A DNA stretch of 22,959 nucleotides from Candidatus Heimdallarchaeota archaeon (GCA_019057635.1 DXJL01000102.1:1-22959), one strand, 5' to 3'; shown: positions 9,886-10,972, counted from the first letter of the stretch. Translations and numbers: made by a program. Notes: generated by a model not told the origin, from the sequence alone.

Positions 9886-10262
9886 CTCCTGAAGGCTTTT
9901 TCTTCAAAAAGACGAGAGGATTGAAAATATCCACATTTTTAATAAGAAATAACCCGTATACGAAGAGCGACAGCGTACTAAACATGTCGGAAATCCTCCA
10001 CGCGTTCACTGCACCTCTATCAACGGATGTTCTATCCCAGCACTCGTTTACCATCTCATAGTTACCGTCGCCAGTCCCCAAGGCTTAACGCTGATGGCAA
10101 AATGGATTCGTCTTTTCGAGGGCCGTTTTGTGCTTAGATGCATTCAGCACTTATCGGTTAGCGCGTGGCTGCTGGGCGATACCCTTCCGGATAACCCGCA
10201 CACTAGAGGCGCTCATACCCTGTTCCTCTCGTACTGAGGGCACGTTCCTCTCACGAAACCAA
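9864..10262 (-). repeat. 23S-3'-end/trailer repeat, copy 5 (long)
   Basis: Collinear with 21500-21909. I counted about 17 differences over the ~245-nt domain VI core, and the trailer is more diverged. Confidence 0.95.
9950..10262 (-). rRNA. rrl: Partial 23S rRNA: domain VI (H94-H101) fragment, not a full gene
   Basis: The minus strand reads the sarcin-ricin loop CAGTACGAGAGGAAC (10222-10236), GATAAGTGCTGAATGCATCTAAGC (H97) and GTTGATAG. Homology stops at ~10262-10268. Confidence 0.9.
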
Positions 10263-10287
10263 CACTGCTTCAAACATAGAATAAATA

Positions 10288-10692
10288 TCATTTAATAACT
10301 TGGAATCCCGCTTGTTCGAAATGTGAATCATATGTAAAGGCAGTATTCATTCTTAAAGTATGCATAACAACAAAACTTGTACAATCAGTAAAGCTAAAGG
10401 TTTTGTCCTGATGTTCCTTAAAAAAATTCCATGCTTTTTCTTCCAATGCCTCTAATATCCAGACAATTCGGATATTAGGAGAGTGTCTGATAGAATCCCC
10501 AATTCGGATAATCTCCTCATGAACCACTCTTCCCCGCAGCAGAGTATAAAATTCATCAAGGATATAATTAGTGGTTATCATCTTCCCATATCTGCCCTCT
10601 CTAATGTGATTTTCAATGACGAGGGCAGAAGAATGATTGATATCATTCGTCACTTTCGAAGCATAAAAAGCCCCAGTGTCAATAAAAATCAT
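10288..10692 (-). CDS. vapC: VapC PIN-domain ribonuclease toxin (VapC20-like)
   Basis: MIFIDT, D..H, TTNYILDEFYTLL, SFTDCTSFVVM and AFTYDSHFEQAGF, with the acidic PIN residues intact. Confidence 0.9.
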   Translation of the reverse strand: MIFIDTGAFYASKVTNDINHSSALVIENHIREGRYGKMITTNYILDEFYTLLRGRVVHEEIIRIGDSIRHSPNIRIVWILEALEEKAWNFFKEHQDKTFSFTDCTSFVVMHTLRMNTAFTYDSHFEQAGFQVIK

Positions 10693-10729
10693 TTAGCTCA
10701 CCCTAATAAACTCCTAAATTAGATATACA

Positions 10730-10972
10730 CTAGCTTGTCCTGTAAAGAATCTGATCGACTTCTTGAGAGGCGTTTTCAATGTCTACTAGAGATTTAGTTT
10801 TAAGAGAAAAATAAGGATCATCAGCTACAACTTTATCACTCTTGAGAAGAGCTAGAATTGCTAGTTTAACTGCTTCCTTGAGAGAAAGATCATGTTGAGT
10901 CGCATAATCCCGAAGAATGGCATGCTCTTCAGGGGAAAGAGTGGTTTGAACAACTTTTTCACGAGAGGTCAT
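10730..10972 (-). CDS. vapB: Antitoxin, ribbon-helix-helix/CopG-like (VapB)
   Basis: 80-aa ORF directly upstream of vapC, with an N-terminal beta-alpha-alpha pattern and C-terminal ASQEVDQILY resembling VapB tails. Confidence 0.75.
   Translation of the reverse strand: MTSREKVVQTTLSPEEHAILRDYATQHDLSLKEAVKLAILALLKSDKVVADDPYFSLKTKSLVDIENASQEVDQILYRTS

Follow-up and report, generated by a model that had tools for sequence, protein, structure and literature searches.

A VapC20-like toxin–antitoxin pair beside a sarcin–ricin loop fragment in a Heimdallarchaeota cassette array bounded by repeats of the 23S rRNA 3′ end

Integrative elements of archaea and bacteria whose targets are 3′ portions of tRNA or tmRNA genes leave displaced 3′ fragments behind as direct repeats, an outcome known as 'gene capture'. 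In type III toxin–antitoxin (TA) systems such as ToxIN, an RNA inhibits an endoribonuclease toxin; it is a tandem-repeat RNA lying upstream of the toxin gene, and there is no protein antitoxin. We know of no VapC20 or VapC26 locus of Mycobacterium tuberculosis that lies beside a 23S rRNA fragment. The toxin–antitoxin complex VapBC26 (PDB 5X3T) is named in a passage of PMC5737657 as that of the sole M. tuberculosis VapC other than VapC20 to cut 23S rRNA at its sarcin–ricin loop (SRL), targets of the M. tuberculosis VapC toxins have been predicted by phylogeny according to part of PMC5175351, and VapC20 is reported in a section of PMC7891357, a study that used it as a tool and cites primary work, to be unable to cleave isolated rRNA and to require the ribosomal context. 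TA cassettes of chromosomal integrons are described, in one passage of PMC13108822, as regulating or stabilizing the cassette arrays. Here, we describe a vapBC pair that runs directly towards a sense-strand 23S fragment with an intact SRL, in a 22,959-nt stretch of DNA from Candidatus Heimdallarchaeota archaeon (GCA_019057635.1, DXJL01000102.1:1-22959; this whole stretch is called the window). The VapC20-like group gains a new archaeal member in this pair, which is an ordinary kind of module; the unusual feature is the array that contains it, rather than vapBC. Our literature searches returned no description of 23S-derived cassette arrays or of vapBC modules flanked by direct repeats.

The best reading of the locus is that the 23S fragment is the downstream boundary repeat of the vapBC cassette and not a demonstrable partner of the toxin, and the adjacency of toxin and SRL is best read as a by-product of the cassette insertion site. 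A sequence-only reading of this DNA had reported the vapB and vapC open reading frames (ORFs), the sense-strand domain VI fragment behind them and its intact SRL; all of these coordinates were confirmed, with a gap of 23 nt between vapC and the fragment. The features concerned are as follows.

10730-10972, minus strand: vapB, putative antitoxin of 80 aa (ORF; conserved together with vapC in the related loci L001 and L002)
10288-10692, minus strand: vapC, VapC20-like PIN toxin of 134 aa (ORF, Pfam, PDB and Foldseek)
10265-10287, minus strand: gap of 23 nt from the vapC stop codon to the 23S fragment, TATTTATTCTATGTTTGAAGCAG, 48% T
9944-10264, minus strand: 23S rRNA 3′ fragment W_A (domain VI to the 3′ end), long repeat form, degenerate (Rfam)
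10222-10235, minus strand: sarcin–ricin loop AGTACGAGAGGAAC, an exact 14-mer that aligns to the conserved loop of the Rfam model
9865-9943, minus strand: trailer of the W_A repeat, GTGGATAT to CAATCCTCTCGTCT, variable palindrome with T5 (9906-9910), AGCCTTCAGGAGTC and GT-rich end (repeat families D2 and D3)

The Rfam model LSU_rRNA_archaea matches W_A, the long repeat copy behind vapC, at 9958-10264 on the minus strand (162 bits, E 1e-47, model positions 2721-2973 of 2987). It begins with the 5′ strand of the helix enclosing the SRL hairpin, i.e. at the start of domain VI, and the intact sense-strand SRL begins 53 nt past the vapC stop. The AGTACGAGAGGAAC 14-mer has two matches in the window (10222-10235 and 21869-21882, both minus) against 0.15 expected.

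W_A is one member of a repeat family with nine clear copies and one degenerate copy in the window, in one orientation throughout (anchors at 243, 3285, 4327, 8109, 9910, 12078, 13408, 16482, 18991 and 21554, of which 4327 is the degenerate copy). From 184 to 21917, the contig is an array of about ten unrelated 1-4.7-kb cassettes between these same-orientation repeats. Read in the rRNA sense, the repeat begins with the 23S 3′ end, of variable reach (0 to ~310 nt), and continues into a conserved trailer of ~130 nt, in which GTGGAAAT and CAGTCCTCTCGTTT come first, then a palindrome that varies between copies, then AGCCTTMAGGAGTC and GT-rich DNA; several copies finish with CTTCTGGTCTTATGTCTGGTGG. 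The copies other than W_A are the following.

21468-21917, minus strand: second long repeat copy, W_B, with an intact SRL at 21869-21882 and no adjacent vapC
12033-12130, minus strand: upstream boundary repeat in short form, ~25 nt of 23S end plus trailer
184-19054, minus strand: other repeat copies, anchored at 243, 3285, 4327, 8109, 13408, 16482 and 18991, with 0 to ~110 nt of the 23S 3′ end

The genes between the repeats are unrelated to one another and lie on both strands relative to them, encoding an FAD-linked oxidase, an ICMT-like methyltransferase, ProC, an Hcp-like protein, a Fic protein, a 961-aa beta-helix protein, an S9 peptidase and a Ras-like GTPase. The vapBC cassette itself is preceded by an interrupted repeat: the gene for a 325-aa ORF (11084-12061, plus strand) splits the distal end of the 12033-12130 repeat from its CTTCTGG block, and is inserted inside the repeat unit that precedes vapBC. 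The 325-aa product has a weak squalene-hopene-cyclase-like match and a counterpart in L001 (8626-9609, minus), and its last codons enter the repeat, so that the C-termini differ between the window and L001.

Of some 14 repeat copies about three are long, and three independent long copies could be compared: W_A, W_B (23S part at 21917-21602 of the window) and L001_B (6720-7047 of L001, a contig of Heimdallarchaeota B3_Heim). All three have the same 23S start (Rfam model positions 2721-2723), and vapC precedes one of them, W_A, the other two having unrelated neighbors. L001_B is preceded by the gene for a DsbD-type membrane protein, whereas upstream of W_B lie an AT-rich spacer and an opposite-strand ORF (22221-22958). 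W_B, 92% identical to 10025-10270 (repeat family D1), is the best-preserved 23S fragment, scoring 199.3 bits in a local Rfam run over 21602-21909 with just 2 non-canonical pairs; the SRL copy without a neighboring vapC that the sequence-only reading had pointed out corresponds to 21602-21917. W_B was absent from both whole-window Rfam scans, a filter miss that bears on counts of such fragments.

L001 also carries the orthologous vapBC cassette, with a toxin 96% identical to that of the window and 96-99% identity per 100 nt across vapBC (8 of 405 nt differ in vapC, which is 98% identical, and 7 of 243 in vapB); the 23-nt gap shows one substitution. The block of 325-aa ORF and vapBC is 95% identical between the two contigs and ends at 12034, and L001 differs from the window by two extra cassettes and different neighbors. 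Over the first 112 nt of the fragment, the orthologous cassettes of window and L001 agree at 103 positions (92%), whereas the L001 fragment agrees with W_B at 110 of 112 (Fisher p 0.004 for the contrast); these identities indicate that the fragment has been exchanged between orthologous cassettes. In L002, the nearest independent homolog (76% aa identity), a helicase gene stands on each side of the module. Its nucleotide homology to the window reaches no further than the vapC stop codon, and neither 23S nor trailer motifs occur there. Finally, the SRL 11-mer was sought in 80 fetched VapC20-like loci (952,663 nt) and occurred in one, L001, and in none of the other 79. The pairing of an SRL-retaining copy with vapC, whose enrichment the sequence-only reading had suggested testing, was seen at 1/3 long copies and 0/79 other VapC20-like loci, and the proposal made there of a decoy, feedback site or RNA antitoxin is disfavored by a fragment that is a generic repeat, is swapped between cassettes and is absent from L002 and these 79 loci.

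The vapBC pair has the type II arrangement, with a small antitoxin-type gene directly upstream of vapC in the same operon; vapB stands 37 nt upstream. Its product gave weak RHH/RelB-like matches (DUF6290, E 0.004; RelB_antitoxin, E 0.067), and a PDB sequence search with it returned no relative. Two features mark the region before vapB.

10977-11014, minus strand: likely vapBC promoter/operator, TATA-like TTTATAAAT (11014-11006) plus a 10-nt inverted repeat
11047-11064, minus strand: 18-nt remnant of the distal repeat block, CTTCTGGTCTTATGTCT, 100% match to 21481-21498

The arms of the operator inverted repeat (10977-10986 and 10992-11001) are 90% complementary with a 5-nt spacer and lie over the expected start site; L002 has an inverted repeat at the equivalent promoter position (1863-1873 and 1882-1892). 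TTTATAAAT, assigned by eye, is a putative TATA-like element of vapBC, and a promoter-like region of its own with an inverted repeat fits an autoregulated type II system. A sigma-70 promoter scan was set aside as inapplicable to an archaeon. The full 22-nt distal repeat block occurs four times on the minus strand against 0 expected, and its CTTCTGGTCTTATGTCT remnant, 75 nt upstream of vapB, is the upstream edge of the vapBC module. Because of this remnant, the module proper can be taken as ~780 nt, in agreement with the span of L002 homology (11001-10295).

The vapC product contains a PIN domain (Pfam PF01850, 36.1 bits against a cut-off of 23.6, E 1.1e-8), and, of its acidic active-site residues, conservation among 45 relatives is complete at D5, E47 and D103 and at least 90% at D122. 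An NCBIfam scan gave no model match for it. Searched alone against the PDB (phmmer, E up to 10), VapC retrieved just three PIN chains, VapC20 5wzf and 5wz4 and Archaeoglobus AF_1683; the alignment to 5wzf (E 8e-16, ~31% identity) upholds the VapC20 residue pattern that the sequence-only reading had given. With a profile of the 45 relatives, VapC20 (E 4e-25) and AF_1683 (E 8e-21) were found and no other VapC. The AlphaFold2 (AF2) model (predicted local distance difference test score, pLDDT, 96) alternates strands and helices in a PIN-like manner, and Foldseek ranked VapC20 first (template modeling score, TM, 0.88-0.91; root mean square deviation 1.8 Å), followed by AF_1683 and VapC26 (5x3t chain B, TM 0.84), with the tRNA-cutting VapCs lower (TM 0.60-0.80). 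The earlier placement of the toxin is borne out by VapC20 standing at the top of both rankings, above the tRNA-cutting VapCs. As far as sequence and fold can tell, by PDB sequence and Foldseek ranks, the toxin groups with VapC20 and VapC26 and not with the tRNA-cleaving VapCs and, by analogy at 31% identity, it probably cuts the ribosomal SRL as they do.

The locus resembles those of M. tuberculosis VapC20 and VapC26 in the PIN fold, the conserved acidic residues and the small antitoxin gene upstream; it differs in having an archaeal host and an antitoxin for which no similarity to solved ones was detected. The toxin's close relatives (63-89% identity) belong to Heimdallarchaeota, Hodarchaeales or Thorarchaeota wherever they are named. 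A VapC20-like pair in this setting suggests that SRL-cutting PIN toxins extend into Asgard archaea.

L002 offers a second instance of a repeat behind vapC. There, an 806-nt vapBC module is bracketed by a 46-nt direct repeat (1738-1783 and 2590-2635, 43/46 identical), whose upstream copy comprises the final 12 codons and the stop codon of a helicase gene and whose downstream copy starts 9 nt past the vapC stop. Judged from the sequence, the geometry is the same as in the window and the sequence different: a displaced copy of the 3′ end of the gene after which the module was inserted stands behind vapC. Direct repeats of at least 30 nt flank 10 of 77 VapC20-like loci with usable flanks; when full flanks were required and L001 was excluded, the figure was 7/58 loci, against 7/322 positions drawn at random from these loci (odds ratio 6.2, p 0.002). 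In the 10 inspected cases, the repeats enclose just 732-990 nt in seven, and in four a co-oriented gene has its stop codon inside the upstream copy. Such modules look like small integrase-less insertion modules, and VapC20-like modules with duplicated 3′ ends of neighboring genes hint at an unexplained movement of small TA modules. The repeats, of 30-231 nt, were seen in bacteria and archaea (L002, L036, L063, L072, L014, L062, L011, L030, L042 and L020).

We consider it probable that vapBC is a mobile addiction cassette, bounded downstream by a repeat that happens to consist of 23S domain VI. On this account, vapBC would be a self-contained, self-regulated type II TA module of ~780 nt and one cassette in a variable, repeat-delimited Heimdallarchaeia array. 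The boundary repeat would be a copy of the 3′ end of the 23S gene plus ~130 nt of trailer, and the long form would contain the SRL because its reach extends back to the start of domain VI. The fragment behind vapC would most likely be displaced or duplicated target sequence left by insertion, and transcripts from the vapBC promoter may well enter it, ending at the T-rich trailer; no sign points to an interaction between the SRL copy and the toxin. By analogy, the module most likely serves as an addiction or stabilizing element for the cassette or the array, and the fallback of the sequence-only reading, an array-stabilizing TA cassette, fits the context.

TA genes recur in related DNA. L001 encodes another PIN toxin, unrelated to the first and 161 aa long, whose upstream partner has 95 aa (7333-8086, minus), in a cassette that adjoins L001_B in the opposite orientation, and a Thorarchaeota contig (L003, 1-3050) carries four TA modules (PIN, Doc/Fic-like, PIN and an antitoxin fragment) within 3 kb, separated by a 31-68-nt repeat at 291-358, 811-841 and 1608-1675; L003 is possibly another kind of cassette array. 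As for the origin of the array in the window, site-specific recombination by an enzyme encoded elsewhere is pointed to because conserved core motifs come with co-varying palindromes, mosaic breakpoints fall within or beside the repeats, and the two genomes differ by whole cassettes. Integron-like capture or serial integration at the 23S 3′ end is possible. Should the array be a gene-capture platform at the end of an rRNA gene, genes would move by a new route in the lineage of archaea nearest to eukaryotes, and the TA cassettes would stabilize the array. MITE-like (miniature inverted-repeat transposable element) spread of the repeat was set aside, given the single orientation of all copies and the whole-cassette differences between genomes. 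A comparison of the fragment and trailer with a phage collection gave no match.

Several points weigh against vapBC being a mobile addiction cassette with a 23S repeat as its chance neighbor. The stabilizing role, though the most likely one, is argued from analogy and not from a result, and a Pfam scan of 19 window ORFs and 11 L001 ORFs found no recombinase (both contigs are incomplete). The nearest characterized relatives of the toxin both cut the SRL, which makes the adjacency a striking coincidence, one not statistically testable with three long copies. The close cassette relatives compared were two, L001 and L002, and L001 ends inside the fragment. Moreover, with no terminator in the gap the fragment is probably part of the transcript, and a function at the RNA level is possible.

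Compared with the known systems, the arrangement is closest in theme to sedentary chromosomal integrons such as the Vibrio cholerae superintegron, with which it shares a self-promoted TA module among unrelated, repeat-separated cassettes and the recurrence of TA cassettes (L001 and L003). However, no IntI-type tyrosine recombinase was found among the ORFs scanned on the two incomplete contigs, the repeats are rRNA-derived and not attC-like (judged without an attC model), and the cassettes are larger (1-4.7 kb), with genes in both orientations and a promoter-like region belonging to vapBC itself. By the defining features tested the array is not an integron, and the placement of vapBC is a variant of the TA-cassette-in-array theme. 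Like the integrative elements of RNA genes, the array has direct repeats made from the 3′ end of an RNA gene; they share their orientation and their 3′ end and differ in how far they reach 5′, and the downstream repeat comes directly after the inserted DNA. Unlike them, its target is the 23S 3′ domain plus trailer, and its units measure 1-4.7 kb with no integrase in the window or L001. An intact full 23S gene is on neither of these contigs.

Each trailer holds two variable stretches that are self-complementary within a copy and differ between copies. RNAalifold on a MAFFT alignment of 10 trailers returned one 5-pair helix only, the variable palindromes being out of register, and a test of cognate against non-cognate arms was used in its place. 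Cognate arms pair better than non-cognate ones (3 and 12 of 10000 permutations as low), and the pair GGGCT/AGTCC shows one compensatory change, to GGGTT/AATCC at 9910. The co-variation of these palindromes suggests a structure or a dimer-binding site under selection. Examples of palindromic trailers are 9865-9943, 16423-16540 and 184-300 in the window and 1925-2040, 7038-7155 and 8478-8598 in L001. A bulge–helix–bulge (BHB)-type partner for the trailer was looked for and rejected, since the rRNA-sense strand has no leader-like complement.

The absence of an obvious terminator between vapC and the fragment, also part of the sequence-only reading, was corroborated by a hairpin-plus-T scan that found none from the vapC stop to 9815; the 23-nt gap contains no T run of 4 or more, and the first T5 comes 378 nt downstream, in the trailer palindrome. 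The first terminator-like site is the following.

9799-9815, minus strand: first hairpin-plus-T terminator-like site downstream of vapC, with a T7 run before it at 9841-9847

Since there is no hairpin terminator before 9815 and no T4+ run in the gap, transcripts of vapBC could plausibly read into the 23S fragment; archaeal termination at short U-rich tracts may also occur after vapC. The best-surviving alternative takes up this trailer and regards the repeat as a generic 3′ end for any cassette, in which the T-rich trailer palindrome stops transcripts and the rRNA piece perhaps stabilizes them. The first T5 after vapC does lie within that palindrome (9906-9910), T5-T7 runs stand at the same place in 5/10 aligned copies (W9923, W12091, L1_1968, L1_7082 and L1_8523), and the palindromes co-vary. 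Nevertheless, the other five copies have T3 only, genes occur in both orientations relative to the repeats, and the palindromes could equally bind a protein or recombinase. We regard this alternative as unlikely, though deserving some weight.

The next alternative is the one favored by the sequence-only reading, that the vapBC mRNA reads into the domain VI fragment and that the SRL in its 3′ untranslated region (UTR) is a decoy for VapC, a site of feedback cleavage or an RNA antitoxin. It draws on a toxin related to VapC20 and VapC26, an intact sense-strand SRL close behind the stop codon, a gap without a terminator-like signal and the same junction kept in L001, and it recalls ToxIN in linking a toxin gene in cis to an RNA that the toxin recognizes. 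In ToxIN, however, the protein antitoxin is missing, whereas here a candidate is already present, and the RNA here is a single downstream rRNA relic common to unrelated cassettes. The fragment is a generic array repeat, found without vapC at two of the three independent long copies, exchanged between orthologous cassettes and wholly missing as 23S sequence from the L002 module, and its SRL motif is absent from the 79 other loci; VapC20 is reported, in the section of PMC7891357 noted above, not to cut isolated rRNA; and many rRNA pairs are lost in W_A. When the 111 nt after vapC were folded by minimum free energy (MFE), the SRL hairpin was missing from the result, which was no stabler than shuffles (z 0.24); as the SRL is a non-canonical motif, this fold is uninformative. 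A decoy role is, in sum, very improbable; it keeps a slight chance since, given what the toxin likely targets and the probable read-through, it is physically possible. There is a correspondingly slim chance that the 3′-UTR SRL is a sponge buffering VapC or an mRNA-destabilizing cut site, a cis-encoded substrate mimic recruited from a 23S-targeting recombination scar.

A further alternative is that the long copies are no relics but working domain VI genes of a split or spare 23S rRNA. All three long copies start exactly at a structural domain boundary, and W_B is near-perfect (199 bits, 2 non-canonical pairs). On the other hand, several divergent copies (~88-92% identical) lie within 23 kb, W_A (157-162 bits) and L001_B (139 bits) score much lower, with broken pairs or insertions, and shorter truncated copies carry the same trailer. 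The local Rfam run gave W_A 157 bits over 9944-10330 and showed at least 12 non-canonical pairs, most of them in the final helices, and RNAalifold on the three long copies found 2/104 pairs compensatory, from three sequences only. W_A, whose broken pairs number at least 12 as opposed to 2 in W_B, is a decaying copy, and we give the split-rRNA idea hardly any credence. That the junction is an assembly chimera at repeated rRNA sequence, as might be thought from L001 breaking inside the fragment where assemblers struggle with the repeat, is practically dismissed by the stop-gap-junction sequence being 47/48 identical in L001, an independently assembled metagenomic contig, and by the window running on through the repeat into further cassettes.

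Other cargo of the array was noted in passing. ORFs at 5359-6894 (plus, 511 aa) and 22221-22958 (plus) match no Pfam family and are possibly part of the mobility machinery; look-alikes of the 511-aa ORF were found in Heimdallarchaeota only, with weak helix-turn-helix (HTH) leads and no recombinase among them. The Hcp-like cargo at 8947-9561 (minus) belongs to the type VI secretion tube family (E 8e-29), here in an archaeon. A Ras/Rab-like small GTPase is encoded at 20456-21136 (plus) and a Fic-domain protein at 12381-13268 (plus), and a different Fic cassette is found in L001, turned the other way relative to the repeats.

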